A DNA stretch of 63,602 bases, filler included, from Guillardia theta CCMP2712 (Eukaryota > Protista > Cryptophyta): NCBI RefSeq assembly GCF_000315625.1. It is 5 parts of 5 records of this genome, joined end to end, with 100 filler letters (N's around TTAATTAATTAA, not from the genome) between each part and the next. Parts side by side here need not be neighbours in the genome. Positions count along the whole stretch, not along the records: positions 36,723 to 60,102 come from NW_005434398.1; 4 more parts are not named here. One strand, 5' to 3'. Positions 37,396 through 59,940 of this stretch are shown here, piece after piece. The stretch's first letter is position 1. The number at the start of each line of letters is the position of its first letter. Below the pieces are notes generated by a model. The model was not told the DNA's origin. It searched no databases and saw nothing but the letters and a program-made list of their open reading frames with translations. The position numbers were made by a program, and so were the translations under genes.

Positions 37396-37410
37396 AGAAA
37401 ACCTCTACCG

Positions 37411-39258: not shown

Positions 39259-42200
39259 TCAGTTCCCTGGCAAGTTTCTCTTTAACATCGCCGCATAGCT
39301 CCCGGCTGTGCTGTCAGTCACAGCAGGTTCATCAGCCTGTGTCTCCTCACCGCGACCACCTGTCACATCATCATCATCTGCTGATGGGTCTGCAACAATC
39401 TGTTCAGCTGTTGGTGCAGCGCCTTCACTCCGATTGCTTCTCCATATAATTCCCAGATTCTTGTAGTAAAGAATGTACGAATATGAACAAAACCGTTTCC
39501 GCGTGCCAAGGTCCACCCATGCGTCTTTCCCATAAACTGTCTCAACCACTTCACGAAATCCTGTTCTGTAACATTGCATCAAGTTCTGTGGCATAATCTC
39601 TTCTCCTTGTGCAAGCACCCCCCGTTCCCGGCAAATCCTCTCCACTTCATTCATGACCACCCTCGCTTTGTTGATGTTCCTCCTTGTGTTGTAGTCTGTT
39701 ATGTCGTCCCGGTACCGTGCAAGTCCAAGGTACTTGAATGGCCGGATCCTCCGCACTTGACCTGTGTCATCAATTATGTCCTGTCCAATATTCCACCACA
39801 TGAACATGCTCCTCGTCGGCACCCGCAAAGGGAAGGTAAAGTTGCTTGGAACCATGTGCTTAGCACGTCCATCCATTTCCCCTTCCCACTCGAAATCGTC
39901 TCCCCCTACCTCCAATTCACTGCTCGCACGTAGCACTCCCTGCCCACTGCGAGCGGATTGGTTCGAGTTCACTTCTTCCTCAGATCCTTGTCCATCTGCT
40001 GGAGAATCCAGTTCTTCCTCCATCATCTCCCTCGAATCATTGCGGCCGGCCACTCGGTCATCTTGTATCGCGGGGATGTTTAATCTGCCCAGAATCTGCA
40101 TCACCTCTGCCCGTATCAACTCTTTGATACTCTCCGTTTGCTTCTGATTCTGCGCCTCAACCACGTTCTTGACCATACCTTCGAATTCCGCCATCTTCTT
40201 GACGATACCTTGGAATCCCGCCATCAATTGGCCGAATACACCACCACTGCCCATGCCTGCATCTGTCTCAATTCCCTGCATCATTGGTCTGTTAGTTGCA
40301 CTGCACTGTCCACTGGAAGTTGTAGCATTGCTGCTGTTTGACAAGAATAATTCCTGTGCCTGCCCTGCCACCGTCTCGCCTCCTTCTGTGCTTCGAACGA
40401 CTGTGAATGGAAGTGCTGAACCGGTGAAATGCGCCCTAATCTCCTGCCTGATTTCTCCCAGTTCTCTCAAGATGTCAGTCTTGGACGGGGTTCCACTGGC
40501 GGTCATCCCACATTCTGTACATCTGTGCACGGGTACGACAACCTCTTTTCGAAGCAACATGAGTCTTCTCATCGTGTCCGCACCAAATATACCAAACATA
40601 GGCATGCCCCATATGAAATGATCATTGTCAGGATACCATCCTTGTAAGGTAGGGAGATGATACAGAATGCTCGCAAGGAAGAATTCGGTACATTTCTTAA
40701 AACCGTTCGGGAATTGCTCGTATCCATCGACAAAACGCTCCCACCCTATCTCTTTCACCTGTCTCAACCCTTCCTGTGTGAAATGCGGAGGCAAAACCCC
40801 AAAATTGGCCGTGGTGCTATCGTTCCCTGCCAGTATTCTTCCCGCGAACTGATCTCCTCCCGTCCCACCAAGAATGTATCGATCCTGTGTATCTCCTAAA
40901 CATAATAGTATCATGAAGTGAAGTCCAAATCCCTACATGCCATACCTATCTTCCAGTTGGCTCTTATGTACACTGTGGGTGCTCCTGAACGTGTTAAAAT
41001 CAGCAGTCATTCCAGATTGATAAAACATCAAACCTGGGCCATCCAGCATCCCTAGAAGGTGGGAAATACCACCCTTTCTTAACGAGTGCGTGCCAGGAAT
41101 TCCAAAGTTGTCAGGTTGTTCCTCGCGTAGAACCCTTTGCAAAAGCTGTTGAAATCGATGTCGTTGGTCCCTCCCAATAAACAATTTGCTGCCTTGCTCT
41201 GACAAGCAAATCCCCCTGCATGCAAAGGTGTAAAGCCCAAGAATGAGGATCGGGCAAATTTCAGGGCTGTGCGGAGCCGCAAAAACATGTTTCACACGAG
41301 TGCTCTTCAAATCCGTGCCTATGCCTGCTTGGTCCGTTTTAGTTCGAAGCAACACTACTTTCATGGCGTCTTCTTCCCACGACAGGTGTTCCAAATGAAG
41401 GATGTCCAGTGATTCACTCCGACATACCAGGTTCCACATGAGGTTGGTGCATAGCCAACCGAAAAGCCATGAGTCCCCGGGTTCTGTGCTTCCCCTGCGA
41501 GGTTTGATATGTCTCACAAAGTTGCACAACATTCGATACTGCTGCATGTTGATAGCAGTTCGACCTTCTTCCATGGACATTATCCCTTTGCTCTTCTTTT
41601 GTGCGACCACCTTCTTGTATGAATGCATACTGTCCTCCAATTCAAGGTCCAATGAAACATCTTTTGGTATCCCCGTCGCTGTGAAGGGTACTTTCCTTCG
41701 CTTGTACAGATATTTCAAAGGATGGTGGACACCGCAACGGTTGCTTTCTCTGATGCTTTTGTAGAAGCAGATCCTTCGCCATTCTCCGGGACCTCCGGGA
41801 CCTCCGGGACCTCCGGGACCTCCGGGACCTCCGCAACCTCATCTTCCTCTTGTCCATCATCCTCTCCGATGTCTTGGTTGATGTGCATAGACGATGAAGC
41901 TTCTTCCAATGCTATTGATGCGTTACTATCATTGTTGCCAGTTTGACCTCGTGGTCTCTTCCTTGCTCGGGCCAACTGGTCGTTTCCAGACAAATATCCG
42001 AAAAAAGCGAGAAGCGGTTCATATGGAAGTGGTACCTTCAAATTATCCAAAGACTCAGTCAAAGCGCAATGATAAGCTGGAAAGGATTTGAAGAAAAGTA
42101 TCATTGCAAATATGCGATATGCGTAGGTTTTCTGCGTGCTGATGCTGACCCTGTGCGATTCTAAGTTCCTGAATGCTTGCACGTTGCTGTCACTGTTCGT

Positions 42201-42476
42201 TGCCATCGGTGCGTCGGGATCATTGAAAACGGACAGTATGTCAAACTCATCTCCTTCCCGCGTCCGTTTACGTGGCCTGCCACCCACCCCAAGTCTCTTG
42301 CCGCCTCTCTGACATGTTCCGCAATAGTCCCCTTGATCGCTATTAGCACGTTGAAAGGCACATAGAATATGGAATTTTTTTTGGCAACTTCGACATACCT
42401 TCAACTGTGCATCATCTCTTTCCCGCAACTGACAATCAGGTCCAAATAAGCATGTGCTGCCATTTTCAGTCGCCAT
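39259..42476 (-). mobile_element. Crypton tyrosine-recombinase transposon gene with N-terminal PHD-like zinc finger, two introns and one frameshift
   Basis: Tyrosine-recombinase residues CRS, TKTDQ, HSLRKG, RANW, QDRY. Removing introns 40985-41033 and 40896-40945 gives GPGAPTVYIRANWKIGDTQDRYI. Also GDQFAGRILAG...LPPHF and HMVPSNFTFP...WW..G..IRPF. Frameshift near 41718. Confidence 0.88.
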
Positions 42477-43726
42477 GTCACCCTATGTTGATGCTGCGTG
42501 TTTTCAGTTCCGATGATATATCGCGATGTTTTGCCCCAATCCTGCAATGTGACCAGGCCCAATCCTGAAGACTGGTGTAAGATGGAAGGGATTGCTTGGC
42601 AAACAGCGAGAAATGAGTGCATACCGGATGATGAAGGATGAAATAAGCTGGAAGGCGACGATGGAATGCTTGTGGTGCTCTTGGTTGTACCACTTGGTTG
42701 TACCACTGTGGTAGTTTGCATTGTAGCACCGGTACTTTCAAAATGTAAACGTTACCTTCACCCCTTCTGCAGTGGGTTTTAGATGGGGTATCAATTGACC
42801 CACCCCATGGGATTACAGGCATGTATCACCCCCCACCCCCCTTCCTTCCTACTTGTGCGATCCTCTATCACTGTGTTTTTCTTTCCCTTGTGTACCGGTC
42901 GTACTGAAAATTAGTACGTCATATCGCAGTTTTCAAGGGCGTCAGTATGTAAAAGGACAATTGAAGGACCGGTCCCTATTAATCATTTTATCCCCCGATG
43001 CCAGCGCTCTAAAACATAAATAGACAACAAATTGGGATTTTAGGGCACTTTTTTCAAATTTTACCAAAAAAGAGAATCCTAAGCTTTTTTTGGAGGCGCC
43101 CTACATCTTGGGATACAAGAAATTCAAATTAAATTCGCGTTGTAAGCTCGCGGTACATCAAATTGGCCTCTGGTACAAATTATTCATCGTACATTAAATT
43201 GCCTCTGGTACAACAATTTCATGGTACATTAATTCGAAAAGCTCTCGTTTCAATAGTCGGTGGAAATTGTGGGTGTATTCCACCAACTTTTGAATTTGCA
43301 ATTCTGGGTCCGAGGTCCCATATTTGATTTACTCAATTTTTTGATGTACCAGCATTCCACCTGTAATTGGCGTACCGAACACGCCTACTACCCCATAATA
43401 AACTAGACTTGAAAAATTTCAGACCCCCCCGGGGAGGGTTATTTTGGTACCATATCCCCCCTAGATGGAGCAAGGTTGGAACGTATTTATACGTTTTGGG
43501 CATATTCCGGGCCTCTCCGGCGATCGCGGGTATCACCGGGACAAACAGCTAGCAAATATGTAAATTTCAATGGAGAACTCGAGTTGTGCAGAGTCGGCTG
43601 GAAACGGCTCGTACATCCCCGTTGCGTTACACTACTACTGACCATGTTAGTCTTAGGAATGCCTCGTGTACATTCTCGGAAGCTCTCAAGGCATCCACCA
43701 TTATGACATTTGGAGCGAGCTAAACA

Positions 43727-44878
43727 TTGCTTTTGTTTATTCCCTGTGGAAGTGTTTGCTTCTTTTACGCTATGAGGAATGTGAATGTGTTTCTTTGTTT
43801 TGTTCTGTTGTGTTACTGGTCGATTGGTACGAAATTTTTATACTTTGCACCGTATTCGCTGACTACAAACTTGGTACAACTTTCTAAATTTGAAAATGCC
43901 AGCATCGTGAAACAATTACCATTGTTCCAGGATGTCGGTCTTTCATGCAATGTCGACTTGAATGATCGGAGCCTTTCTCAGCCCTTCATTTTTGTTATGT
44001 TCGGAACCCGAGCATTCTTACCCTTGATATTAAATTGGCTGTGCAATACATTGTTGTTTTCCGGTATACACAATAGGACTGTAATCATCGTAGATGACTA
44101 TTTTAGCTCGAATGCATTGTCGTCTTACAACGTTGGGTTGTGTATGACTTCCAAGCTTCATTTAAATCACACTGGTTTTCACTACAACACTTTCGGTTAC
44201 TGGCAGTTGGTCCAGCAAAGAGTTCGCATAATTGAATACCTCACAGCACTGAAAATTCCGATCCTCCTTTTTGAGCCAGATGCTTTGTGGGTTCGAAATC
44301 CTTTAGAAGATGATGAGCTCATGAATGCTGAAGAAGATCTTGTGGGTTTTAATGATGATGGCAATTTTGGTTTTGGGTGGCTGAGGTTGACTACTTCCGA
44401 ATCTGTTCATGCATTGATGCAAGCAGTACGTATTCAATTTGACAAACAATTACAAAATGTTGTGAACTTAGATTACAATCATCCTCTTTCTATGGCAGGA
44501 GAGCAACATGTCATGGTTAACCTTCTGAAAAATCGAAAGAAAGAGGCTGGATTTTCCAACATAACCACAAGAATGTTGACGGAATGCAAATATCTGAGTG
44601 GCAAGTGGTATGACGGAGGCAGGGGGGGCAATGGAGAGTCAGTGAGGAAGAAGTGTAATGGTTTTCCTGTGGTGATCAACAATAATTGGATCGTGGGCAA
44701 TGAGGCTAAAATAGCACGTGCAAAACGTTGGGGCCATTGGTTCCTCCCAGATGATCTGAACGGTACGTGTGGTTCAACAAGGTTTTTGGAGGGTGCCATG
44801 TATCGAATGCGCCACTCGATTAAGACTGCAAAACCTTTCAATGGGCCACCTCGGCAGGATGAGTGTCCGCTCTGCTGA
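43727..44878 (+). CDS. Nucleotide-diphospho-sugar transferase (GT77 / Nucleotid_trans-like), type II membrane
   Basis: N-terminal TM; LNWLCN, Y..L...RV, LLFEPDALW..NP, EQ, SGKWY and NNWIVGNEAKIARAKRWGHWFL. Confidence 0.85.
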   Translation: MLLFIPCGSVCFFYAMRNVNVFLCFVLLCYWSIGTKFLYFAPYSLTTNLVQLSKFENASIVKQLPLFQDVGLSCNVDLNDRSLSQPFIFVMFGTRAFLPLILNWLCNTLLFSGIHNRTVIIVDDYFSSNALSSYNVGLCMTSKLHLNHTGFHYNTFGYWQLVQQRVRIIEYLTALKIPILLFEPDALWVRNPLEDDELMNAEEDLVGFNDDGNFGFGWLRLTTSESVHALMQAVRIQFDKQLQNVVNLDYNHPLSMAGEQHVMVNLLKNRKKEAGFSNITTRMLTECKYLSGKWYDGGRGGNGESVRKKCNGFPVVINNNWIVGNEAKIARAKRWGHWFLPDDLNGTCGSTRFLEGAMYRMRHSIKTAKPFNGPPRQDECPLC

Positions 44879-45403
44879 GTAACAATTCAGAAACTGGATT
44901 CTGCAAAACAATTAAACATCTACGAAGCTGCACGTCTATTTTTGAGTGATCCAGCATCACTTGCCTCGTTTGAGCTCTCGCATCTTACAAATCAGCTTCT
45001 GCGTCTCTTCTAACGAAGAATCAGGGAAATCACCCGCTGGCCCACGTGCAACCATACTTTCAAGATACGTGAGGAGACATGCACAAAAAACTATGTCAAG
45101 AGTCATCAAGATATTTGTTCTGGTCGTCACGTTCTTGAATTTTTCTTTCAGACTGATGACACAAGGAGACATCAGATCAGTCCAAATGAAGACTAAGAAA
45201 GCTCTCCATGTCCTGAGATGGAAACTTGGAGGAGATTTTAAAGTTTGTGATTAGCGGAGCTGCCGTCTTCATGAATCAGACGGATGGATGCCCCATATAG
45301 AACCTGAAGCACATTGCGCAATTGCTTTTTATTGTTTTGCTTGCTATCAGGGTCACCTACATTGAGAAGCAAATCTCAGCAAACGAGCGAGTAATAGGAA
45401 AAT

Positions 45404-46504
45404 TTAGCGAATTGGTCGAATATATTTAGGATTGAAAAACCAATTGCTTCTAACAAAATTGCCGTAGTAAGTATATTTTTGCGATTGAAGGAATGCAATG
45501 ACTTCCCTTTCCTTCTGTCGATCCAGCCCTTCTGCCTGCGGCCAGACTGAATGAGTCGCGAAAAATATAACGAAACAAGCAAACCTCTACGAGTATGACC
45601 GAAAATGTGTGAGATTCGAAATCAATGGTTTTCAAAACCTGCATTCAATCGTAAGGATCACCTATCTATGTACGAAAATATTTACCTCCAACTCACCGCC
45701 TTCAACATCTAAAGATAGCATATCAACATGGACAATAGCAAACATGTTGAGCACATATTCTAGTGGTACACACAGAATCTTAGTGAGCTGATAAGTGCGA
45801 TGCCATCTGTAACAAATTTTCATAACTGACAATGAAAAATGAAGTTCGACTCACCCTCGGAGAAACTGAGGGGACATAAATTGCAAAATCCCTTTGACTG
45901 CAGGATGTCCGCTTGTGACATAATCAACTACCGAAAGATTTGAACAAACAGCAGCATGAACTAAGATTTGACTCGGTCGATGGCTCACGAGCTTTGCAAA
46001 ATTAGAAGGATCGGCTTCGATGAGCAAGCCATGCCATCCAAAACTCTTTTCAAAAGCATGAGTATTGGAAAATGTCAAACCATCCAAAGCTCCGAGTTCT
46101 ACAAACGTTCCATTCCCTGCAAGACGTTTATGTTTGATTGAAGCGGAAAAAAAATTGCGATAAGCAAATTCATCCTCCCCACTCTGACTTCGCATGTGTA
46201 GTAGACTTCCATTTCCTGTTCGACTCCTTGGACGAGACAACATTTGCAATAATGGAGCATGTAATGTTCCACCTTGAAATTCTCCGAACAAACTTATATC
46301 AACCTTGTTGATGTTTGACCATTGTGATGACTTTGCGGGAGTCCCGACCAAATCACAACTACATTTCCTCAAACGAGTCGATGAACAAAGAGTCTCGAAA
46401 ACGAATCCGAACATGATGCTCGCGAGAAAAGCTGTTACAAGAGTAATGAGCAAACATCTTTTGAGATCGGGAGTCCGCACTTGATGTGGACATGCTAATT
46501 CCAT
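45404..46504 (-). CDS. FkbM-family (Methyltransf_21) SAM-dependent methyltransferase, 4 exons
   Basis: SQSGED, FVELGALDG..FSNT..FE...GWHGLLIEA. Spliced continuation gives VDMLSLDVEGGELE|VLKTIDF..VILVE|AEG...NWFFNPKYIRPIR*. N-terminal TM anchor. Confidence 0.88.
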
Positions 46505-46563
46505 AACCGGTGAAATCCTCGCACAACTGCCGGCGTGAACATAAAAAACCCAAGAAATTGTTT

Positions 46564-46762
46564 ACCGGTCACGGCCGCCCGGAGACATCAGCCGCCCGGA
46601 GACATCAGGCCCCCGGCCAATCTCCGGACACTTAGCCTCCTGGCGGGCCTCCAGGGGGTCTGAGGCGGGGCTGAAGGCTGCAGTCGGTCTACTGACGGGC
46701 CCGGCCGGCAGGATCCGTCGAGAAACAGGGGGGTCAAGGGAGGTTTTCTTCCCCCTGGGAGA
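46564..46762 (-). repeat. Inverted copy of part of the 332-bp terminal repeat unit
   Basis: Reverse complement matches TCTCCCAGGGGGAAGAAAACC...GGCCGTGACCGGT of the array at 58.5-59.9 kb, with a small internal duplication. Confidence 0.95.
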
Positions 46763-46914
46763 TTCCTCTTCCGTCCTCGTTTCTTCGGAGCCACCGGTTG
46801 ATGCATAACCCCAGGCATCGATTCCATGGAGTCATGGGATTGCTGCGAGAGGCGGAGGAATTCTGCCATAGAGACGCGGCTGTCCCGCGAATCATCCCTA
46901 TGAATCTCCTCCAT
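46588..46914 (-). pseudogene. ORF truncated by, and reading into, the left repeat
   Basis: Unique N-terminus ending in NLS-like PKKRGRKR, then repeat-encoded LPGGRKPP... Confidence 0.45.
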
Positions 46915-47009
46915 GGCACCGATGGCTTGGGATATTCAAGGGTCGCAAGACCAAGCGCGTCGTAGTATTCAAAAAAGATCCCTGAAACCCTGCATGTGGG
47001 CGGGAATTG

Positions 47010-47205
47010 CAACCCGAGTAGCTGTAAAGTTTTTAGGATGGGTCAGGCCAACCCTGCCCGACGGGCCAGACGCTGCAGAATAGCTGTAAAATTTTTCGAT
47101 CGTGTAGTAATGAGCATCGGGCCAACCCTCAGGCCAAGCCAACCCTCCCCGGGAAGCTGTAAAATTTTTCATTGAGTAGTAAAAAGCGACGGGCCAACCC
47201 CCAGC
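47010..47205. repeat. Three imperfect ~65-70 bp iterated units with AGCTGTAAA(A/G)TTTTT and GGCCAACCC cores
   Basis: Cores at ~47020, 47082 and 47155; GCCAACCC occurs four times. Confidence 0.8.
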
Positions 47206-47290
47206 CACAAAAAACACACGCCAACGAATAAGGTTATGCGCCCCGAGCCCGGCGATCCTATTTGACCAGGCCTCCCGTGCGACTCACAAG

Positions 47291-47590
47291 ATGTACTTTA
47301 CACATTCCAACGGAGAGAGGGTCACCATCGGGAGTGACAGCCGGTTGACGGACCTGGAGGTGTTCATGAGGGCCAAGCCGTACCTCAACCGTAAGCTAAA
47401 CATCCACTACGGCAGCGGTCAGAGGGTAAGGGTGTACGACGAGCCCGAGCTCTCCGTGGTCAGCCGCATGGTTGCGGCCTACTACAATTTCGAGCTAGAG
47501 CAAGATTCCGATCTCTTCGAAGACCCTATCTTCAAGTCTAGCCTGTGGAACACATGCCTCTTTGCCCAAAGCGAGGACGGTCGGGGATAA
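47291..47590 (+). CDS. Hypothetical virus-like protein (may continue by frameshift to 47730)
   Basis: ATG ORF of 99 aa with TATTTGA at 47259-47265 upstream; an overlapping frame 47545-47730 continues past the stop. Confidence 0.6.
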   Translation: MYFTHSNGERVTIGSDSRLTDLEVFMRAKPYLNRKLNIHYGSGQRVRVYDEPELSVVSRMVAAYYNFELEQDSDLFEDPIFKSSLWNTCLFAQSEDGRG

Positions 47591-48022
47591 TCCCCGTCGA
47601 TGAGGCCAGGCAGGATGTCCATCATGCAACGGACAATGCGAGCAGTGAAGGTGAGGATGAGATCGGCCAATGCGAGGAAAAATACCGTAAGTGGCGACAC
47701 CTATTTATGAAATGCGGCATTGCGTTCTGATGAAGAGGGAGCAGCAGTAATCCTTGAAGTTCTCATATGTGCTAAGGCATGAGGTAGACTCACAAATCTC
47801 CTCCTCCACCGCCACATCCTTCGTCGCACACACGATGCCGCGCAGCTCTGATACAAAATCCGACGCACTCATCTGAGGCCGGCCCGGCATTGCTTGCCCC
47901 TACGCTTGCCGTTGAGCCCCGCGACCGTTTTTTTTTAAAAAAAAAAGAATTCAAATCCCCCTCCGGACCCTTTTTTAAAAACAGGGCCGCCACTGGCCAT
48001 TCCCACGCACCACCTACCACGC

Positions 48023-48289
48023 ATGGCCACCACGCCGCAGCTCGCCCCCTGGCTCATCAAGTCGCTCAACGAGGACACCATATTCGTCAAGCTTGCAAGA
48101 AAGGCAGAATGCAGCGAGGATGAGGACGACTTCGACGGGATCCTGTCCCCGCTGCCGACCAAGGTTGATCTGCAGGTGCCAAATACCCCAGTGAAGAAAA
48201 GGAAGACCTTCACGCCGATCCACTCGCCGGTAGAATCCGACGCCGAATCCTCCTCCCTATCCGACTCGGACTTCTCCTTGAATGAATAA
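48023..48289 (+). CDS. Small acidic/Ser-rich protein with NLS-like TPVKKRK
   Basis: 88-aa ATG ORF, upstream TTTTAAAA, AATAAA overlapping the stop. Confidence 0.6.
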   Translation: MATTPQLAPWLIKSLNEDTIFVKLARKAECSEDEDDFDGILSPLPTKVDLQVPNTPVKKRKTFTPIHSPVESDAESSSLSDSDFSLNE

Positions 48290-48309
48290 AAAAAAAGGGA
48301 TGCATATGC

Positions 48310-48460
48310 ATGCAGGGTACCTTTGACGGGAATTTCAGCACCTGTGTGATGTGCGGCCCTGGGTTTGTCTATTCTTTGAACACTTCGACTTGCCAGGATG
48401 TCAACGAGTGCTTGGACGCTTCTCTCTGCCCGGCCAACTCCACCTGCATCAACACCTATG
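48310..48460 (+). pseudogene. Calcium-binding EGF-like domain fragment
   Basis: CGPGF......CQDVNECLDASLCPANSTCINT, broken after NTY and joined out of frame to the next ORF. Confidence 0.7.
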
Positions 48461-51400
48461 TGCGTGATAGAACCGGGTCAGACCTACGGCGCCTGCTCCT
48501 GCTTCCTTACCAAGGTCACCCCGCAGTCCTGCACGGCGTCGCAGGTGGGGCATTCGGTGAACTATAAGCTCTCCGGGCTATGCATGGCGCAGGTGACCAG
48601 CAGCATGGGCGGGTTCAGCGCCGCGTCGAGCTCCACCAACACGATCAGCTACAAAAACCTGCTGGCCACACCCTGCTACAACGCCGACCCGGCCAATATG
48701 TACTGCTACAGCGTCTACAGCTCGGCGTTGAGCTACTCCCCCATGCTGGTCTCCTTGGGGGTGAGCGGGATATCAGGGTCGGGTGGTCAGGGGCCCTACG
48801 GTAGGCGACTGCTCGGCATTGACGACGGGCCAGAGTTCTTCAGCCATGACGATGCATGCATGGACGCATGGGATGAGTTCCTTGCTACCAACAAGAGCAC
48901 AAGGGTGATGGCGGGCTGTGTCACCCGCTTTGCCGCCACTTACGACGTTGTTTCCCAGCACGGCATGTTAGACTACATCCCACCGAATATGTTTGTCAGC
49001 TGGTCGGACTTCATTGCAACCGTGGGAGAGAGACCAGAGTCCCTTCTTATCCTGCTCTACTCGCCAAGGATGGCGGTCGACCTTATCTTCAGGACTCCCA
49101 CCTTCAACCGCCTTTACCGGTACTACTTCATCTGGGTGTCAGCTCTGTCCGATGCCTATTTCGACATTGCCGTGCATAAGAGGCTCGACGCCAACGGCAG
49201 CCTGCACTACGAGGTCGACGCGGATGGTGGCGTCTTCATCAACGGCCACAATATCAGTGAGATGACGCTGATACTGCTCAACCTGCTCCACGGCGCGCAC
49301 CGCCACTTCAATGCCACGGAGACAAACCACACCCTGAGCCTCGCGGTGAGGAACAGGGAGTCGGTCAGGAAGCTCCTCTCGATGACGAGCCTCTCGCCCC
49401 TCGCCACCGAGCTCCTGTACAACGGCAGCGGGGTGGAGGAGAGGGTCACCCTACGCCACCTCATGCAGTTCACCTCCTGGAAGACACAGATGAAGGAGGT
49501 CCAGAGGTTCACGGGCTCCACGGCCCTGAACAACGGCGTCCAGCAATCCGTGGGGACGGCCACCGATGCTGCCTGGGTGAACAGCCCCTTTGCATGGCCC
49601 ATCAACTACGACTTCGGCGGGACGGTGCTCCAATGCCAGCTTCCATTACGTCATGATCTTGAATTACTCAATAATGCATCTGGTACAAAGGCTGGCCCAG
49701 TGGGCCAGATCCAATTAGTCCTGAGGGGGGCATAGCTTGCCGTCCGGGGTCCAGAAGCACACATATCTGCTTTAGACTACCCTCCTTTCCCCTATCAAAT
49801 GTCGGGTGGTGTAGCACTACCCCGTTTGTGGTTGTGAGGTCCTTCAAGGGGGGTAGACGAGGCAAATTGAGGCTGTTCTTGGAGCCTGTTAGTACCGGAT
49901 CTCGAGCTCCTCGTACAGTTCTAATACGCTTTTAAGGCGATTTCAGGGTGATGGTGAACTGTGTTCCACCCCCCCGCACCCAACAAACGGCTAGTTTGAA
50001 TTTACATGCATGAGTACCCCCATTTTAACCCCAGGTTCTCTTGGGAATGCGAGGGTAGGTGATTGGAAACAAGACACCTCCACCCCCTGCTTTCCAAGTT
50101 TGAAATATAGAAAAAGGGGGTAGGGGTCACCCCTTTCCTTCACTTTCCCCAAATCCCCCCTCCCTCGACCAAGCAAGAGATGGCGAACCGATCCCTTGCT
50201 CGCGCGCGACAACCAATTTGAATGGTGAGAGACTTCGAATCTATGTGTACTGTCATGTGGATGAATAGAAAACTTCTCTTTGAACCTATCCATAATGGTT
50301 GAGAACCACTCTTGGATTCCAAGAGGAAAGAGAAGATTTGAATCTGAGTTCGTTGAGTTGCTTGTGAATACAAAGAAGCTTTGAAGCATGGTGAGAATAG
50401 TTTTAACTGTATGTTAATGATGATGTTTGCTTTCTTGATCTTGTGATGGTGTAAATATGCATCAAATACTGTTTTGAGCGGCAAGGATTCAAATTTGCAT
50501 GGTTACATTATCCCAACAAGCATGTCACTTGCCTTCTTGTGTTTGCACTGAGACGCCTCGATGATGATGTATCTTAGTTATATAAGCGATTTTCACACTT
50601 TGAGAAGGAAAACATGAGGAAAGTGGATCAGGGTGCGATGAGAGATGCAACCTTCGAATACTTGATGGAAATGCGATCCTCCTTGTTGCGTTGCCACCCT
50701 AGCATCCTGGTACCAGAATGCTACGTGAGATGAAAGTGAAGCAGATTTGAAGATACTTGCTGTTGCTTTTCTATGTTTGTGATGGATTTGAATCAGGTGA
50801 ACGCCAAAGAAAGTGGCGTCACCAATGATGCTTGCACATTGTATGCAGATGTATGTGACTCTCTCTCTGTTGGTGACATTCATTTCATGCAATGAGGAAC
50901 TTGCACGTCACATACTCTAGCATGGTACTATGCATGTGATAGCGTGCAACTGTTTCATTCACAGGGTAGCTTCAATAAAGTCAAATCATCACATCCTTGC
51001 TGGTTAGATTCGTCTTACATGCCAATGCTCGTCGCCATGTAATTCTTTACATTCTTGTGCTTGTGGCTTTGTTAAGCAGCCACACTCCACCATGCCGGGC
51101 ACTGAGCCTGGCATCGTGCACATGATGGTCATACATATAGCTTTACAAGCAACTAATCGAATAGGCAAACAAAGATGAAGAAAGCATGAGACATCAGCTG
51201 CCTCCAGACAAGGTTAGCTCTCTGCCAGCGAACGCATCAGCCACTTGAAAGCTGAATCATGATTGAGATCGCCAGAATTGTCTGTCGCACTGCAGTTGAT
51301 TTTTGAAAACAACTCTCATGAGCTGTACTAGCCATTCCTTCTCTCAGAGTCTTCTCTCATGCGATTCCATTGCCGAGGAGTTTTCTCTCGTGCTTTCAAG

Positions 51401-53431
51401 TATTGATAGTTGAAGGCTGGACTTGAATGCCGGGCGTTGTGCATCAGTGCACTTCTCTGAGCAGTGGAAGCAGAGCCATTGCAACAAGCCCATCACAGCT
51501 AAGATGATAAATCTGTCGGTGAAAGAAGTTCAAAGCCAAAGAGGACGGAAGGTGTAACTTGCGGTTTGGAATAAATCTACAGCCAGACACGAGTCTAACT
51601 TGTACATAGTCATAATTGTGACAATTGTACGACATGTATGAATGAAATATATTCTATTGATGTTACTTTGTCTAGAACAAGAACATGCATCTGAAAGGTT
51701 GTAGTGTAATCCCAACATTTTACACATGCGAAGCATCATTATCTAATGTCAAAATATAATGAGGTAGCGATGCAAATCATGATGAAAACTTCAAGACGTT
51801 TGAATTCGGACTGGCATCTTGCATGGCGCCACAGATGATTCAAATCATGAAGTGCAGATCTTGAAAATCTCGAGGTGCTTGCACTAAAGCGGCTTGACAA
51901 CTATCGTTCAGCTTCATTCTAACTCAGAAGAAGACGCTGCCTGTTCCAAACATCTCCAAGATTGCATCAATCTCAAGTTTTTCATTCATGCCAAACCAGC
52001 ATTCTCAGCCTTCAATCCCATGAGAAGCGATAATCGAGGTGTGACGTACCTCTACGCAATCATACTCCTTCACCACCTGCTTCAGACCTCCATTTCTTCA
52101 TGTCAGACTTGATACTTGTTTGCTTTGAACGAAGAACACAAATGCCTGTTGCTTCAGCTCTTGCATGCGCCGACGCCATGCATCATGGAGGGCGCTTCGG
52201 TACTGCGTGCCGGCGTGTAGATGGCGACATGTCGGGCGTGTAGGGGAAGCCGGGGAGTACTCGAAGTCAATTTGAAACTGGATTTGAAATTTTACATACT
52301 TGTAAACAGTACCAGAAAGCAACTTTAAAACCTGTAGTAGACCACCCCACCCCACAATTTGATGTGTTTGCGAACAACCCCGTTCAGGAAGAAATGGACC
52401 AAATTTCAAGATCATGACGTAATGTGTCGAGGTCGGTTGTGCTGGTCAAGGATGCGTTCACCAACACCTCGCTCTACTACACCAACGGGCATGCCCTTGC
52501 CGCCACCCCCAGGGCTATCGTGTCGGGCAGTTGGCCCTTCAGCAACCTCCCCTACCGCGGCCCCGTCCCCCCGCTCAAGCAGCCGGCGAATCAGAACTTC
52601 TTCAACATGATCGTGTATCAGGCGACCGTGTGGATCGACAATACGCCCTTCAATCGCCAGTTCTTGTATGACCTGTTCGGGGCATTGCCTGGCGAGATCC
52701 TCGACCTATCCAAATGCGACAGGCAGGCCGTGATGCTCTGCACTCGCCACCACTACACCCTGCTGGTATCCGGCTTCGTGATCGCGGTGGTATGGATGGG
52801 GCTGTCACTGGTTCTGACGTCCTTCCGCATCCCCCACATCACAGCCCTGCTGTGGACCACATACCCGGCCATCGTGGTGTATTATGCCTTTGGCGTCTCC
52901 CCGCTTTGCTTCCCGATGATTCCGACCTGTCTACTGGAGGACCTTGTCAATGTCCTCAATTTCTTCTTCCCCGCCACCATCCAGTTCCCCGACAGCCTGC
53001 AGGCAAGCCCGGGGTGCCTTTCCAACGCTCATAATTCCACGGAGAGGGCGGCCTGCATCCTATCCTGCTCCCAGCAGCCCTTTGATTATGTATCGTGGGA
53101 GGCGGAAATCTCCTGGTGGACCTGCCTCGTATCCACGGGTCTCTGCAGGTCGGTCGATAGCTTCGTCACCAGCCGCCCCGTCCTCAACAAGCTCACCTCC
53201 CTGCACAAGAACCTCGCAGTCAAGGCCGCGATTGTGGAAGGCAACAACATGGATATGATCGTGGCGCAGTCGGCATGCGCCACCCTGAACATCTGGAGGA
53301 TCATACCCCTCATCATGATCCTCTTCCTCGTGTTCTACGCCTTCAGCGTCATCGCTACCTTCCCCTTCTTCCTCTTCAATGAGGTCATCAGGCTGGCGAT
53401 CCAGAGCGTGATCATGACGCACACGGACTAG
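48459..53431 (+). pseudogene. Large Cys-rich multi-pass membrane/surface protein interrupted by an insertion (segments ~48459-49643 and 52425-53431)
   Basis: Removing 49644-52424 joins ...CAG CTT C|TG TCG AGG... in frame (QCQLLSRSVVLVK). Cys-rich ectodomain, GRRLL motif, N-glycosylation sequons and C-terminal TM helices. Confidence 0.8.
49644..52424. mobile_element. Non-autonomous TIR element, perfect 20-bp TIRs, no TSD
   Basis: CATTACGTCATGATCTTGAA (49644-49663) and TTCAAGATCATGACGTAATG (52405-52424); AT-richer, ORF-poor interior. Confidence 0.88.
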
Positions 53432-53488
53432 TTATTGAATGGTGGTCTTTACTTAGAACCTTACAGAATCAGAGCCTACGTCCAATGC

Positions 53489-53845
53489 CTAATAAAAGAT
53501 AGACAGGAGCAAGGAGTACAACTCCTCGTCGGTGGTCGGGACAACGAACTCGAATGGCTCGAGGCCATGCAGACTCCTCAGCCTCTTGATGCTGTGGTGC
53601 AGGCTGAGATAAGCTCGGATGAGCGCAATGAAGTTAGCACGGTTGGCAGGAAGGACGTGGATCCTCTTCGCAACCTCATTCAGCTGCTTGCGAGTGGGTT
53701 TGCAGTTGTGCTTCAAGTCCAGATGCAAGACGATGATGCATCGCAATTCCTCCTTCGTGCTACGAGCAAGTCTCTCGTAAATAGAGATTTGTTCACCTCT
53801 GGCCTGATTCCTGGTAGTAGAGTCTGTTTGACTGCGTGTGATCAT
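53489..53845 (-). CDS. Small basic protein, tandem paralogue 1 (MITRS... family)
   Basis: Aligns with 53946-54299 (MITRS.T..T.RN..R, KPTR.QL..VA..I, EELYSL.LS); TATTTAA ~39 nt upstream. Confidence 0.75.
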   Translation of the reverse strand: MITRSQTDSTTRNQARGEQISIYERLARSTKEELRCIIVLHLDLKHNCKPTRKQLNEVAKRIHVLPANRANFIALIRAYLSLHHSIKRLRSLHGLEPFEFVVPTTDEELYSLLLSIFY

Positions 53846-53883
53846 TTGAAGAAATGAACCGTGCCGGTAGAGAGTCGGGTGAC

Positions 53884-53890
53884 TTAAATA
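53884..53890 (-). promoter_or_regulatory. TATTTAA box
   Basis: Conserved with its downstream leader in both paralogues; the same motif lies upstream of other island genes. Confidence 0.55.
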
Positions 53891-53945
53891 TTGAATGGTG
53901 GCTTTTATTTGTAAGCTTACAGAATCAAAGACCAATATCTCATGC

Positions 53946-54299
53946 CTAATCAAGCACAGACAGGATCAAGGAGTACAACTCCTCCGCGGAGTCAGCGAAA
54001 ACCAACTCATATGGCTGATTTCGATCTAGACCCATCAGCGACCGGATCTTGTAGTCATTGTAATGGACAAGGAAGATGCGGTTCAGGAAAAGACCACGTT
54101 CGCAAGGACATCCGTAGATCTTCCTCGCGACCTGCATAAGCTGCTCACGGGTGGGTTTGCCTCTCTTCATGTTGGAATGGAAGCGGACAACCTTTCGGAT
54201 GACTTCCTTCTCATGCCGAATATGTTGCTTGTATTGTGATACCATCGTATCTCTGATCTTATTCCTTCTGGTTGCGTTTGTTTTACTGCGTGTGATCAT
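53946..54299 (-). CDS. Small basic protein, tandem paralogue 2
   Basis: As for paralogue 1; same spacing of TATTTAA (54338-54344) to the ATG. Confidence 0.75.
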   Translation of the reverse strand: MITRSKTNATRRNKIRDTMVSQYKQHIRHEKEVIRKVVRFHSNMKRGKPTREQLMQVARKIYGCPCERGLFLNRIFLVHYNDYKIRSLMGLDRNQPYELVFADSAEELYSLILSVLD

Positions 54300-54337
54300 T
54301 GTAGGAAATGAACCGTGCCAGTAGAGCATCGACTGAC

Positions 54338-54344
54338 TTAAATA
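54338..54344 (-). promoter_or_regulatory. TATTTAA box
   Basis: Same position relative to the ATG as at 53884. Confidence 0.55.
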
Positions 54345-54433
54345 TCGCATCGAAATCTCGGCATGTGTAACAAAAAAAATCGATCCATCCCCTGCGCTCA
54401 AGGTGACACTGACTCATCGGTGCTTTGAGATGC

Positions 54434-55411
54434 ATGCAAGTGAGTTGCGATGAGTGCTTCGTCTGCAAGCGCTGCCGGGACGGAAGGGTGTCGAGATGCA
54501 AGGCGTGCAGGCCCTGCTTAGACTGCAGTGATCAGAGGGTGAGATGTTGGAGGGGGGTCAGCGCTCCGTTCCTCCTCCCGCGGGGGTTGAAGGGGCATCG
54601 GTGCGACTGGCAGACCATCGATATCGACCTTGCGGGTTGCAGAGAGTGCGGTGCCATCCATCGCTGCGATGCATCCTCCTGCCCCGTGTCCGAGGAGAAT
54701 GACAGCCATGTATGTCTCATCACGGGCAACTGCGTGAGGATGAAGAGGTTCACGAGGGACGAGTTCATGGACAGCGTGGTGATCATGGACCTGCCCGAGG
54801 CGATGGATAGGGAGGTCAAGCTGCTTGTCGAGATGCGGGAGGTGAAGGATAAGGTGGAATGGATCCTTATGTCCTCCACGGCCCTTCAGAGCTTCGACCA
54901 GGAGCGTGGGCGTATGGAGCAGAAGCACCGCCATCTGATGTGGAAGGCGTTGAGGGAGGTGAAGGTGCAGGGGAAGATCCCGAACCTCTGCGAGGTGATG
55001 ACGAAGATACTGTATGCCACCAACAAGATCAGGGTCTGCAGCAACACCTTCCAGGAGGACCTCCGCTCCCTCATCTCGGAGCGCTGCACCCACAGCATCA
55101 CCCGCTTCCTGAACATGATGGGTCAGAGGTTCAAGAGCGTGCTTTCAAGTCTGAAGAGCACCGTGCTCATCATCGGGACGCTATACCTGATGCGCATGGG
55201 CATATCGATGAACAACATCATCCTGCTTCCCCGCATTCCCCAGCTTCAGCTGCTCCTCCCCATCGAGACACACCTCAAGAGCTACTTCCACGTCAAGTGC
55301 AAGAGCATCACGGAGGTCGAGAACATGATCAAGATGTGCCTCCGGGGGCTGAGCTCGGGAGAGCTGGAGAGAATGGGCTTCACCGTGGTGGAGAACGGGG
55401 TCGTGGTGTGA
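54434..55411 (+). CDS. UL92-like (herpesvirus late transcription factor family) Cys/His-rich protein
   Basis: CRECGAIHRCDASSCPVSEENDSHVCLITG = C-x2-C-x3-H-x-C-x4-C-x10-C-x2-TG. Extra N-terminal CxxC repeats, intronless, AATAAA just after the stop. Confidence 0.7.
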   Translation: MQVSCDECFVCKRCRDGRVSRCKACRPCLDCSDQRVRCWRGVSAPFLLPRGLKGHRCDWQTIDIDLAGCRECGAIHRCDASSCPVSEENDSHVCLITGNCVRMKRFTRDEFMDSVVIMDLPEAMDREVKLLVEMREVKDKVEWILMSSTALQSFDQERGRMEQKHRHLMWKALREVKVQGKIPNLCEVMTKILYATNKIRVCSNTFQEDLRSLISERCTHSITRFLNMMGQRFKSVLSSLKSTVLIIGTLYLMRMGISMNNIILLPRIPQLQLLLPIETHLKSYFHVKCKSITEVENMIKMCLRGLSSGELERMGFTVVENGVVV

Positions 55412-55849
55412 GAGCCAATAAAATGTTTCAATCGGTACTGGGTGCTGGTGGTCGGGAGATTCTCCCCAAGCCATGCAGTACCAATTTGCGGTGAGGAAAA
55501 TGGTGAAAGGCGCTGTCTTCTGCCCGTTCTGCCATTGGCCCCCACATCTCAGGCCCTGGAGGCGCTGCCCCTGCCCTTGGGCGAGGCTCATACCGGCCTT
55601 CCAGGGCGCAAGGCGCGGGTGCGAGCCGAAGAGGAAGGAAGGATAGAGATTAGGTTTTATTTTACTTCTTCTCGCGAAGACTTAATAAATGATCGTTGCA
55701 TTTGAGGATGGCGTAGATGGCCTCTGAGAAGAGGCAGGCTTCGGATCGCACGTGCAATACCTTTTCTTCGCTGCTCTCCTTGCCGTCCAAATCTTCGTAC
55801 TGCGCGACATCGTAACACGCTGTGACCTCTAAGTGTTAAATACACGGGT

Positions 55850-56221
55850 CTAAAAGAATCCCCAATGCCTCCGCTTCTTGACGCGCACGATGTCCACCTC
55901 GGTCAAGGTCACCGGGGCGGTGGAGCTGAGGACCTTGACGTGAAGGGCGATCCTCTTCCCCTCGAGGGGCACGACGCCAACGTTCTGAACCCTGACGGGG
56001 TTTGCGTCGCGTATGAGCTGCAGGTCCGAGAGGCTCAGGATGCTGTCGGAGGTCTTGGCGATGATGACGAAGCCATCCTTGGAGGTGCGGACCTCGTAGT
56101 CGTGGAAGCATAGGTCCCTGGAAAGACCCTGCATCACCGCTACCACGTTCTCGATCACCACCCTGTCATCGGCCTTGATGCCAGAAAGCATGCCCTCCAT
56201 CGGGAGCACCGCACTTGCCAT
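55850..56221 (-). CDS. Hypothetical virus-like protein with a basic C-terminus (VKKRR)
   Basis: Intronless ORF, ATG at 56221, TATTTGAA at 56248-56255. Confidence 0.7.
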   Translation of the reverse strand: MASAVLPMEGMLSGIKADDRVVIENVVAVMQGLSRDLCFHDYEVRTSKDGFVIIAKTSDSILSLSDLQLIRDANPVRVQNVGVVPLEGKRIALHVKVLSSTAPVTLTEVDIVRVKKRRHWGFF

Positions 56222-56332
56222 TGATGACGATGGCCACACCTGAAGGGTTCAAATAGCTGCATTCGCGTGGGAGTGGTTTGCATGTGTGTTCTTGTTTTTT
56301 AATATCTATAACAGAAAGGTCTATCCTACCTA

Positions 56333-57655
56333 CTACTTGAAGATCCATCCGCAGCTTGCATAGAAGAATGCCATCAGGGCGATGAGCATAGCTGGGGACA
56401 TGATGATTACATCCAGACTTGGGTCATAGATGCCAGGCTTCAAGAAGCAACCCATGGTGTTGGAGACGGTGCGCACGTTGGCGGTGCGGTAATAAACCAC
56501 GCCGATGCTGAAGAGGGGGAGAACGCTTTGTATGACCATGTCGTCATCGCTGAGCAAGGCCAAGACGATGCAGTTCACCGCAACGATGATGTATGTCACG
56601 ATGCGGCGAGAGTAGAGTACGTACTCGGAAAGATAGGGTGCTACCTCCCATAGGCGCACCTTGTTGATGTTCCCGTGGTTCCCGATGCAATTGTTTGCAG
56701 GCTTGTCCTCGGTGTATTGCATCTCGCCCCTCATATCGTTTGTAATATTTGGGATGTACGGTATCTTGTTGTATGTCTGTGATACGGATACCATGAAGAC
56801 ATTGAAGCACAAGCAGGAGTACACCATGGAATAGATGAACATTGAGATATACTTGGTGACTATCTCATCGATCATACCCTGGCGCAGATTGTCGTAGTAA
56901 TACATGTTCTGCTTCAGTTGCTCGAACGTGTCAATGTCATTGCTGGAAGATTTTTTAGACACCACCATCTTCTTGTACATCTGATCCAGTTTCGACTGAT
57001 AGTAACTGGAGTATTGCTGCGATTCGTCGATGAGCAAGTCGATCTCGGCAGCCTCACGAGCTGTTTTGTGCAGGAATGTATACCCCACCATCAGCGTCAA
57101 TGTGCAGTACATCAACAAGGTGAAGTGAACCCAGCAGTGATTGTAGAAAAAGAAGGTGTTGTATCCCGTCTCAGAACCCACCTTTATCAGGCATGTTATA
57201 TGATTGTAGGCCATGCCCAACAAGTACCATCCGACCAGGTCAAACGTTATGAACATGACGATATCAACGTTCCCGCTGTTGTTCAGGTCCGTCGTCATCA
57301 GAAGCAGCGAGTAGTACAGAATCTGTAATATGGCTATGTATGGAACAATGTCCGGTATAGCCAAGTCGTAATAACTCCGCATAATGTACTCGAATTTGTA
57401 TTTGATTGCTAGGGTCATTAAAGCAATCAAGAGCTTCCAAAGGAGCATCAGGAACATGACCTTTGTCGGGTGAATGTAGAGGCTTAGCATGAAAGCGTTG
57501 CCGAGTAGGAAGTATCCGCCGACCGTGGAGGCATGTGAGACAAGTTGATCAACCTTGTCTTTTACCAGGTAGTACAATAGACCAGTCTTGATATCGGTTA
57601 TTTGTGTCCTCAACCATACAGGAACCATCCTGAGGTCCTTAGGGCAAATCAACAT
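56333..57655 (-). CDS. Multi-pass membrane protein of unknown function
   Basis: 440-aa intronless ORF with many hydrophobic segments; TATTTAA at 57660-57666 favours the ATG at 57628. Confidence 0.8.
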   Translation of the reverse strand: MLICPKDLRMVPVWLRTQITDIKTGLLYYLVKDKVDQLVSHASTVGGYFLLGNAFMLSLYIHPTKVMFLMLLWKLLIALMTLAIKYKFEYIMRSYYDLAIPDIVPYIAILQILYYSLLLMTTDLNNSGNVDIVMFITFDLVGWYLLGMAYNHITCLIKVGSETGYNTFFFYNHCWVHFTLLMYCTLTLMVGYTFLHKTAREAAEIDLLIDESQQYSSYYQSKLDQMYKKMVVSKKSSSNDIDTFEQLKQNMYYYDNLRQGMIDEIVTKYISMFIYSMVYSCLCFNVFMVSVSQTYNKIPYIPNITNDMRGEMQYTEDKPANNCIGNHGNINKVRLWEVAPYLSEYVLYSRRIVTYIIVAVNCIVLALLSDDDMVIQSVLPLFSIGVVYYRTANVRTVSNTMGCFLKPGIYDPSLDVIIMSPAMLIALMAFFYASCGWIFK

Positions 57656-57659
57656 TCAC

Positions 57660-57666
57660 TTAAATA
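57660..57666. promoter_or_regulatory. TTAAATA/TATTTAA box in a minimal divergent intergenic region
   Basis: Lies ~32 nt from the minus-strand ATG (57628) and ~37 nt from the plus-strand ATG (57703). Confidence 0.5.
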
Positions 57667-57702
57667 CTTTACAGCAGAAGTTGCGCCCACGTCATTGCAG
57701 GG

Positions 57703-58500
57703 ATGGAAAAAAGGCGCGCTCAAAACCCCGGCGCGGGGGACCAAATCCGTCCAAACCCCGAGACAGCGGTGCGCATGAGCCTGTGGAGCGACCCGCTCTG
57801 TGCGAGGGCGTTGATGCATCTCTGCATATGCGATAGGACATTTCTCCCAGGGGGAAGAAAACCTCCCTTGACCCCCCTGTTTCTCGACGGATCCTGCCGG
57901 CCGGGCCCGTCAGTAGACCGACTGCAGCCTTCAGCCCCGCCTCAGACCCCCTGGAGGCCCGCCAGGAGGCTAAGTGTCCGGAGATTGGCCGGGGGCCTGA
58001 TCTCTCCGATCCTCACCACCTTTATGGGGGAGCACTTCAGCATGTCGGTGAACATGCGAAAGTCCTACAACAGCCGGGACTACGAGGGGCTGCACCTTCG
58101 CCTCGACCCTGTAGAGAGCGCGAAGCTCTTCGATTACGCCATCGACCTGGTTGAACGCCGCGTGCCGTACAATTTCGCCGACCTGCTGTACCAACCGATG
58201 AAGGCCGTCCTCCCGGATAGCGGATTCTTTGAGGACGTCCCTAACGAAAGCTCCCTGCAGGTCAAGAAGGTCTTCTGCTCCCAGGCTTTCGTCCTAGCCC
58301 TGCGCAACAGCCTGCACAACGACGACCTCGCCGGGGCACTCATCGACGAGAGCCCAATCCAGCGGAAGAAGCTGCTCTGGAGGCTGATCAGCGAAAACAG
58401 CCGGCTCTGCACTCCCAGCGACCTCTACCATATCATCAGGCCTTACTGCAGGAGAGTGGACATGGACCGGCTCCGGCACGGCCATTTGTCTTACACATAA
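57703..58500 (+). CDS. Permuted papain-like NlpC/P60-type protein, disrupted in frame by a repeat copy
   Basis: PYN...KKVFCSQ...NSRLCTPSDLY motifs; 57835-58007 is repeat-derived. Confidence 0.55.
   Translation: MEKRRAQNPGAGDQIRPNPETAVRMSLWSDPLCARALMHLCICDRTFLPGGRKPPLTPLFLDGSCRPGPSVDRLQPSAPPQTPWRPARRLSVRRLAGGLISPILTTFMGEHFSMSVNMRKSYNSRDYEGLHLRLDPVESAKLFDYAIDLVERRVPYNFADLLYQPMKAVLPDSGFFEDVPNESSLQVKKVFCSQAFVLALRNSLHNDDLAGALIDESPIQRKKLLWRLISENSRLCTPSDLYHIIRPYCRRVDMDRLRHGHLSYT
57835..58007 (+). repeat. Internal direct copy of half of the 332-bp unit
   Basis: Identical to AGGACATTTC...GATCTCTCC of the array units. Confidence 0.95.
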
Positions 58501-58539: not shown

Positions 58540-59940
58540 TGGCCGGGGGCCTGATCTCTCCGGGCGGCCGTGACCGGTCAGCGGACCGTGTCAGCAGGCC
58601 CGTGACATGTCAGCCGGCTGACAGGGGCCGTGACCCGGCTGACAGGCTCACCTGACCGGTCACGTGACACATCACGTGACCGAGACAAGACTTTTTTATA
58701 TCGCAGATCCAAAAACCCATAGGACATTTCTCCCAGGGGGAAGAAAACCTCCCTTGACCCCCCTGTTTCTCGACGGATCCTGCCGGCCGGGCCCGTCAGT
58801 AGACCGACTGCAGCCTTCAGCCCCGCCTCAGACCCCCTGGAGGCCCGCCAGGAGGCTAAGTGTCCGGAGATTGGCCGGGGGCCTGATCTCTCCGGGCGGC
58901 CGTGACCGGTCAGCGGACCGTGTCAGCAGGCCCGTGACATGTCAGCCGGCTGACAGGGGCCGTGACCCGGCTGACAGGCTCACCTGACCGGTCACGTGAC
59001 ACATCACGTGACCGAGACAAGACTTTTTTATATCGCAGATCCCAAAATCCCATAGGACATTTCTCCCAGGGGGAAGAAAACCTCCCTTGACCCCAGGGGG
59101 AAGAAAACCTCCCTTGACCCCCCTGTTTCTCGACGGATCCTGCCGGCCGGGCCCGTCAGTAGACCGACTGCAGCCTTCAGCCCCGCCTCAGACCCCCTGG
59201 AGGCCCGCCAGGAGGCTAAGTGTCCGGAGATTGGCCGGGGGCCTGATCTCTCCGGGCGGCCGTGACCGGTCAGCGGACCGTGTCAGCAGGCCCGTGACAT
59301 GTCAGCCGGCTGACAGGGGCCGTGACCCGGCTGACAGGCTCACCTGACCGGTCACGTGACACATCACGTGACCGAGACAAGACTTTTTTATATCGCAGAT
59401 CCAAAAACCCATAGGACATTTCTCCCAGGGGGAAGAAAACCTCCCTTGACCCCCCTGTTTCTCGACGGATCCTGCCGGCCGGGCCCGTCAGTAGACCGAC
59501 TGCAGCCTTCAGCCCCGCCTCAGACCCCCTGGAGGCCCGCCAGGAGGCTAAGTGTCCGGAGATTGGCCGGGGGCCTGATCTCTCCGGGCGGCCGTGACCG
59601 GTCAGCGGACCGTGTCAGCAGGCCCGTGACATGTCAGCCGGCTGACAGGGGCCGTGACCCGGCTGACAGGCTCACCTGACCGGTCACGTGACACATCACG
59701 TGACCGAGACAAGACTTTTTTATATCGCAGATCCAAAAACCCATAGGACATTTCTCCCAGGGGGAAGAAAACCTCCCTTGACCCCCCTGTTTCTCGACGG
59801 ATCCTGCCGGCCGGGCCCGTCAGTAGACCGACTGCAGCCTTCAGCCCCGCCTCAGACCCCCTGGAGGCCCGCCAGGAGGCTAAGTGTCCGGGAGATTGGC
59901 TGGGGGCCTGATCTCTCTGGGGGGGCCGTGACCCGGTCAC
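58540..59940 (+). repeat. Tandem array of a 332-bp GC-rich, palindrome-rich unit (~4.2 copies, probably continuing into the gap)
   Basis: AGGACATTTC starts at 58721, 59054, 59413 and 59745; one unit carries a 27-bp internal duplication. Confidence 0.97.

Follow-up and report, generated by a model that had tools for sequence, protein, structure and literature searches.

Guillardia theta CCMP2712 carries on scaffold NW_005434398.1 an intact and conserved viral gene of the herpesvirus UL92 type, which lies within a degenerating, apparently silent fragment of a likely mirusvirus and whose product would probably serve as a TFIIB-like factor in the active virus. The window, i.e. the whole stretch of DNA analyzed (63,602 nucleotides, filler included), joins five parts of this genome, of which positions 36,723–60,102 derive from the scaffold named. 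The UL92/ORF31-like gene of the mirusvirus type (54434–55411, plus strand) is an ATG-initiated open reading frame of 325 codons without interruption, coding for a protein of 325 aa. Translation bore out the pattern C-x2-C-x3-H-x-C-x4-C-x10-C-x2-TG which a sequence-only reading had placed at 54638–54727; it is in frame with the ORF and comprises C69, C72, H76, C78, C83, C94 and T97-G98 of a predicted zinc-binding domain. The pattern matches only once in a six-frame scan of the whole window, and shuffling the residues of the protein 100,000 times never yielded it. CxxC pairs in front of the motif, noted in the same reading, are present as well, residues 5–31 (54446–54526, plus strand) containing six overlapping CxxC modelled with low confidence; as a family trait they did not hold: of 139 aligned relatives, no more than 5 carry at least two CxxC ahead of position 36, and the cluster is lineage-specific. 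The Pfam model Herpes_UL92 (PF03048), against which the gene was to be checked, matched the ORF with an E value of 4.9e-8 and 33.4 bits, above the curated cut-off of 21 bits, over residues 68–147 (positions 21–99 of 191 of the model).

Comparison of profiles likewise connects the protein with herpesvirus UL92. Herpesvirus profiles were built from 48 natural loci fetched by the x5 pattern and 34 fetched by a UL49 motif, with 15 ORFs confirmed by Pfam; as the UL92 set was chosen by the x5 pattern, its spacing does not constitute an independent count. The x5 spacing given for HCMV UL92 in the earlier reading was found, as x5/x10, in all six UL92-type sequences contained in the available supplement of PMC12197705. 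The profile of the window protein's family matched that of 47 natural herpesvirus UL92 proteins with a probability of 95.9% (P 6.5e-9) over 52 columns. When halves were compared, the N-terminal ones matched (P 4e-10), whereas the C-terminal ones did not (P 0.063). Among 46 x 16 profile pairs, only three UL92-like queries stood out, the best other pair reaching P 0.004. On these sequence comparisons, homology to UL92/ORF31/BDLF4, as proposed in the earlier reading, is shown for the zinc domain alone, because the N-terminal halves match and the C-terminal halves do not. The window protein resembles UL92/ORF31/BDLF4/U63 of beta- and gammaherpesviruses, the LTFe component of the late pre-initiation complex, in its Cys/His ligands and its two tethered domains, but has x4 in place of x5, is about 100 aa longer, resides in an algal host, has a C-terminal half without detectable sequence match, and has none of the tested partners nearby. 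Herpesvirus UL92 has been predicted, rather than solved, to consist of two tethered domains with two zinc sites and to occupy the place of TFIIB beside a TBP-like domain, according to the portion of PMC12197705 available.

The protein belongs to a large family. A HMMER search over 1.84 billion representatives retrieved 403 relatives (clusters) at E 0.001 and 233 at 1e-10, the best 150 of the 403 being examined; 20 more distant relatives are nearly all metagenomic proteins. The motif is present in 126 of 158 collected family proteins, and an alignment of 140 of the 158 shows C69, C72, H76, C78, C83 and C94 conserved to at least 99%. Conservation of the same degree marks another block, close to the C terminus (G256, E296, N297). 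In the 139 relatives, the spacing was x4 with x10 or x11 in 73 and x5 with x10 or x11 in 15, while 21 did not match. Pfam UL92 was hit at E 0.01 or better by 64 of the 139, five other families being hit once each, and Pfam TFIIB by none. With a median length of 306 vs. 224 residues, family members exceed herpesvirus UL92 by about 80 aa. Among named proteins, those of Guillardia theta and Hanusia phi come closest, and one annotated G. theta protein model corresponds to the protein of the window with a differing exon call. A tree of 43 chosen sequences, from which P0002 and the most distant matches were left out, grouped the window protein with these cryptophyte proteins, five others and the relative encoded by locus L001, with a support of 0.99. 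The L001 protein is 61% identical to that of the window, and differences between the two genes amount to 104, 82 and 141 of 323 at the three codon positions. Relatives are encoded in 27 of 90 candidate metagenome contig stretches, and these 27 loci are gene-dense. Other collections gave nothing of use: the ESM Atlas contained no usable match for the 325-aa ORF or for a 1,230-aa protein of L001, a PDB sequence search returned only designed helical repeats for the ORF and nothing for the L001 protein, PHROGs gave nothing below E 0.005, and IMG/VR yielded no relative via alignment, single proteins or x4 patterns.

A first structural model based on only nine sequences was too weak (pLDDT 65). The model from 139 sequences reached a pLDDT of 88 and shows a zinc domain (residues 33–104, approximately), a flexible linker, and a helical domain (approximately 134–313; 54821–55372, plus strand) predicted to adopt a single cyclin-type fold of the TFIIB/Brf1/cyclin kind with insertions. 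Foldseek comparison of this model, another check suggested at the outset, gave a divided answer, since nothing in BFVD or PDB reached E 0.001, while UL92 did appear among the weak BFVD rows (rank 13, E 0.33), together with a gammaherpesvirus protein at rank 3 and several viral TFIIBs. Ranks 1–5 in PDB were chains M or R from pre-initiation complexes of RNA polymerase II (E 0.11–0.64), which we take to be TFIIB. VIA-align against 48,161 chains placed cyclin-fold proteins first; the top row, the Pol II pre-initiation chain 7o4i_M, had an rmsd of 3.2 over 97 aligned residues and a Z score of 6.5, a value in the range that the tool labels a possibly common arrangement. Cyclin C (Z 6.5), a Pol III chain (6.4) and the TFIIB cores 5wh1, 1ais and 3h4c (5.4–5.9) followed, so that cyclins tie with TFIIB; a repeat comparison gave a Z score of 6.7. 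About 95 residues were aligned, and no row reached 8. These scores are consistent with one cyclin repeat in the helical domain, though the signal is modest and bears hardly on the zinc domain. A second cyclin repeat was not found in the model. The predicted order of zinc domain, linker and cyclin-type fold is that of TFIIB, Brf1, archaeal TFB and nucleocytovirus TFIIB; in contrast to these proteins, which have two repeats, that of the window would have a single one with long insertions, as well as other zinc ligands, and its 139 family members lack a Pfam TFIIB match.

The gene is part of an endogenous viral fragment of about 12 kb (46763–58500, approximate extent), whose left end corresponds to the loose end, at 46766, of a relative from a lake metagenome. 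The UL92-like gene is followed by a convergent small conserved viral gene (55850–56221, minus strand; 123 aa, 56% identical to the L001 gene), the family of which is kept in 14 of the 27 loci (profile P 1.6e-23), and by a hydrophobic ORF of 440 aa of no known family (56333–57655, minus strand). On its other side lie two tandem duplicates of a small gene on the minus strand, copy A at 53489–53845 and, divergent from the UL92-like gene, copy B at 53946–54350. A long viral gene on the plus strand is split into a 5' piece (48398–49643) and a 3' piece coding for the hydrophobic C-terminal part (52425–53431) by a multi-copy element of 2,781 bp with perfect 20-bp terminal inverted repeats (49644–52424); the element is present at 4–8 times single-copy depth, has an empty site in run X6, and shows neither a long ORF nor an obvious target-site duplication. 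Copies of a GC-rich 332-bp satellite flank the fragment on both sides. A partial copy marks the host–virus junction (46564–46762, minus strand), another lies inside the ORF at 57703–58500 (57833–58008, plus strand), and a tandem array occupies 58540–59939 (plus strand). This satellite, whose depth is about 4,000 times that of single-copy DNA in X1 and X10 and 1,600 times in X2, is a major repeat of the genome, perhaps, as a guess, centromeric or heterochromatic. Inverted repeats of 172 bp around the island were considered as viral terminal repeats and rejected, being pieces of this roughly 4,000-fold host satellite. The GC content at third codon positions is 0.33–0.44 in the host genes at 43.7–46.5 kb and 0.61–0.85 in the genes of the island. 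The host genes at 43772–46534 code for a glycosyltransferase (Nucleotid_trans) and an FkbM-like methyltransferase; they have low GC3, are spliced, and are expressed in X12 and X13.

Sequencing reads were placed on positions 43500–58500 of the window, run X1 possibly being the source of the window itself. Single-copy DNA of the island occurred at 1.2–1.4 times the depth of the host flank in runs X1, X10 and X11. In RNA run X9, the host genes were covered and 52518–57527 had zero coverage (133 reads, 6% of the run, a low depth at which weak expression is possible); in the RNA-type contigs X12 and X13, host genes were covered and spliced, and the UL92-like gene was not covered. With no RNA over the UL92-like gene in three runs, the fragment is apparently silent. 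Run X6, a hypersaline-lake metagenome, contains collinear contigs about 90% identical to 46766–56372 that lack the 2,781-bp element; the lake relative has a depth of about 17, the host genes 0, and the satellite about 11. The lake relative is therefore probably free or replicating, or else an integrant of a diverged host. The junction between host genes and virus is crossed by the satellite, and no independent contig spans both. One-base differences or rearrangement points at 47578, 47746–48460 and 55393, between the window and reads or lake relative, show signs of either decay of the island or assembly error. The UL92 homology and the placement of reads support the viral origin claimed for the island in the sequence-only reading: it is best explained as a degenerating viral fragment in a cryptophyte chromosome, within which the UL92-like gene is intact.

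The source virus was most likely a mirusvirus and not a herpesvirus, and we regard the mirusvirus identity of the integrated virus as highly probable. It rests on gene content and literature, because HK97 capsid, terminase, portal and triplex genes were sought in the window and the 27 loci without success, and the 1,230-aa candidate of L001 gave no hit. Of the genes typical of the mirusvirus core, a UL92-like gene is present in the window, a heliorhodopsin in L001, which also keeps the small neighbour gene of the window, and weak RING matches in L006 and L017. The published supplementary table, as far as available, lists a UL92/ORF31-like core cluster with a frequency of 66.7% among mirusvirus genomes and 0% among nucleocytoviruses. 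The accessible sections of PMC12768974 assign the UL92 family to orthogroups occurring in 313 and 13 genomes, count heliorhodopsins and ordinary TBPs among the core genes, and describe some mirusvirus lineages as having no RNA polymerase. Two papers on mirusviruses thus already contain the UL92 link in their supplementary tables; our literature search found no paper on mirusviruses with UL92, the homology standing in those tables. The published clusters and the window gene are alike in the strength of the Pfam UL92 match, in length (732–813 nt for the clusters) and in their protist-virus setting, and the Foldseek match 4u5a listed for the clusters appears for the window model too, at rank 17; the window copy differs in being integrated and silent and in its additional N-terminal CxxC, the two being likened by description rather than by sequence. 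Mirusvirus capsid genes of clade E03 have been described from G. theta in the available part of PMC10827195; these mirusviruses of Cryptophyta assemblies share with the window the host species and the endogenous state, but are defined by a capsid marker, whereas the fragment has no identifiable capsid gene.

Two further genes of L001 code for proteins of 1,230 aa (L001:122–3811) and 309 aa (L001:4293–5219); their counterparts on another scaffold of G. theta are identical to 93% (along 430 aa) and 98%, respectively, and at least three related integrants thus seem to be present in this alga. The two proteins presumably resemble the major capsid and jelly-roll proteins of mirusviruses. As candidates for the herpesvirus capsid protein, the 1,230-aa protein and neighbours of 1,560–2,040 aa in other loci were dismissed, since they matched neither the profile nor each other. 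The gene for the 1,560–2,040-aa protein of L006–L020 is distributed over many short pieces in L021–L027, and the UL92-like gene of L026 over two, which is what spliceosomal introns would produce in mirusviruses rich in introns.

The proposed search for partner factors was carried out on neighbouring ORFs. Profiles of UL87, UL49, UL95 and UL91/ORF30 matched no neighbour above chance in the 12-kb island or in flanking sequence reaching up to 10 kb, and whole-Pfam scans of the neighbour ORFs showed no UL79/ORF18 match. In L001, genes for a Cys-rich protein of 581 aa (L001:8171–9913) and a protein of 282 aa (L001:7326–8171) are located directly upstream of, and in line with, the UL92-like gene. 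The 581-aa gene, which is outside the window, has 13 homologues and no family; the accession of its G. theta homologue is next to that of a second UL92-like gene on one scaffold. Its identification as UL49 was rejected, the match being confined to one Cys motif of 27 columns with P 0.026 (0.007 with trimmed halves), while chance pairs reach 0.004.

Herpesvirus late promoters use TATT boxes, according to the part of PMC4893493 available. In six intergenic stretches of the island (1,044 bases), TATT(A/T)AA occurs five times, against 0.24 expected, with 0 of 2,000 shuffles reaching five, and canonical TATA(A/T)A does not occur. Boxes of the sequence TATTTAA, all on the minus strand, are located between divergent genes, 45 nt ahead of the paralogous start of copy B (54338–54344), before copy A as a duplicate of the former (53884–53890), and in the divergent region before the 440-aa gene (57660–57666). 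Among the five boxes, two are duplicates, two are in divergent regions and one is downstream of a gene; none precedes the UL92-like gene, and none of 10 ORFs of L001 has TATT(A/T)A upstream. As late promoters of the island, the boxes are suggestive.

For the active virus, we favor a role of the protein as a TFIIB-like factor, which the model and the order of its domains make fairly likely. On a TA-rich promoter, a mirusvirus-encoded TBP would have the C-terminal cyclin-type domain bound at its side, and the zinc domain, being tethered, would extend to RNA polymerase or to a partner that binds the polymerase, a position equivalent to that predicted for herpesvirus UL92/ORF31 in the late pre-initiation complex. 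Specificity for late genes is a weaker proposition, which we hold to be somewhat doubtful. The earlier suggestion that the island derives from a virus with a related late-transcription system is retained in part: such a system, which we infer for the source virus, would suit the TATT boxes as well as the TFIIB-like model, but only the zinc domain matches by sequence and none of the tested partners was found among the neighbours. An extended version of this idea, in which a full herpesvirus-style late pre-initiation complex with diverged UL87, UL49, UL95, UL79 and UL91 partners would operate on TATT boxes and the 581-aa protein would be the counterpart of UL49/ORF66, appears unlikely. It would account for the 581-aa gene being, in L001, the direct upstream neighbour of the UL92-like gene and for the adjoining accessions in G. 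theta, for UL49 being the best herpesvirus profile match of the 581-aa protein, and for the excess of TATT over TATA boxes; however, that match does not exceed what chance pairs of the matrix attain, the gene is outside the window, and the boxes include two duplicates and one downstream of a gene and are lacking in L001. Moreover, the mirusvirus supplements searched, as far as available, carry no UL49, UL87, UL95, UL79 or UL91 label, and mirusvirus TBPs belong to the ordinary TBP family and are not UL87-like in the accessible text of PMC12768974.

Slightly less probable still is that only the zinc domain is shared and was recruited to an unrelated helical domain, the protein having a role other than transcription initiation, e.g., as a cyclin-like adaptor. 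Sequence similarity does end at the zinc domain, cyclins score equal to TFIIB, and the family proteins have about 80 aa more than herpesvirus UL92; against this reading, zinc domain, linker and cyclin fold follow the order of TFIIB, the whole-chain Foldseek search favors pre-initiation chains and several viral TFIIBs, and herpesvirus UL92 was independently predicted at the site of TFIIB (PMC12197705, in the portion available). We consider it very improbable that the island is anything but an integrated mirusvirus, be it a fragment of a nucleocytovirus, an episome or contaminant that the assembly joined on, or a domesticated algal gene. The want of an identified hallmark gene and the junction crossing a satellite would fit such an origin, as would two close homologues from the Hanusia phi set in EukProt, which are probably transcript-derived. 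Against such origins, the UL92/ORF31-like cluster is absent from nucleocytoviruses in the published table, as far as available; the island was found at 1.2–1.4 times the depth of host DNA in three runs, host repeats interrupt its viral genes, the UL92-like gene shows no RNA, and its relatives are on gene-dense contigs.

To our knowledge, the six-protein late-transcription complex has been thought peculiar to beta- and gammaherpesviruses. A widespread family of protist viruses that combines the UL92 zinc domain with a predicted TFIIB look offers an origin for one of its subunits, and a mechanism for gene switch-on in those mirusviruses that have no RNA polymerase. Since the homology is already in supplementary tables, the gene itself will be unsurprising to mirusvirus specialists; the locus contributes a host that is in culture, a cryptophyte-linked clade, the TATT boxes, and a relative from the environment that is nearly identical. 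Tentatively, and with doubt prevailing, UL92/ORF31 might be a reduced TFIIB inherited by herpesviruses from a mirusvirus-like ancestor, with mirusviruses keeping an ancestral minimal late-promoter system in which viral TBP and the TFIIB-like factor act at TATT boxes and the 581-aa neighbour may be the counterpart of UL49. If this were true, a cultured alga with several integrants and an about 90% identical, apparently free lake relative would make the origin of the late complex testable.

Candidate mobile elements also occur elsewhere in the window. Three minus-strand ORFs at 39259–42476, without Pfam match, have motifs recalling a tyrosine-recombinase (Crypton-like) element. At 36742–38451, a DDE_Tnp_4 transposase gene (E 2e-18) faces an ORF of 346 aa, presumably the two-gene layout of a PIF/Harbinger-type element.
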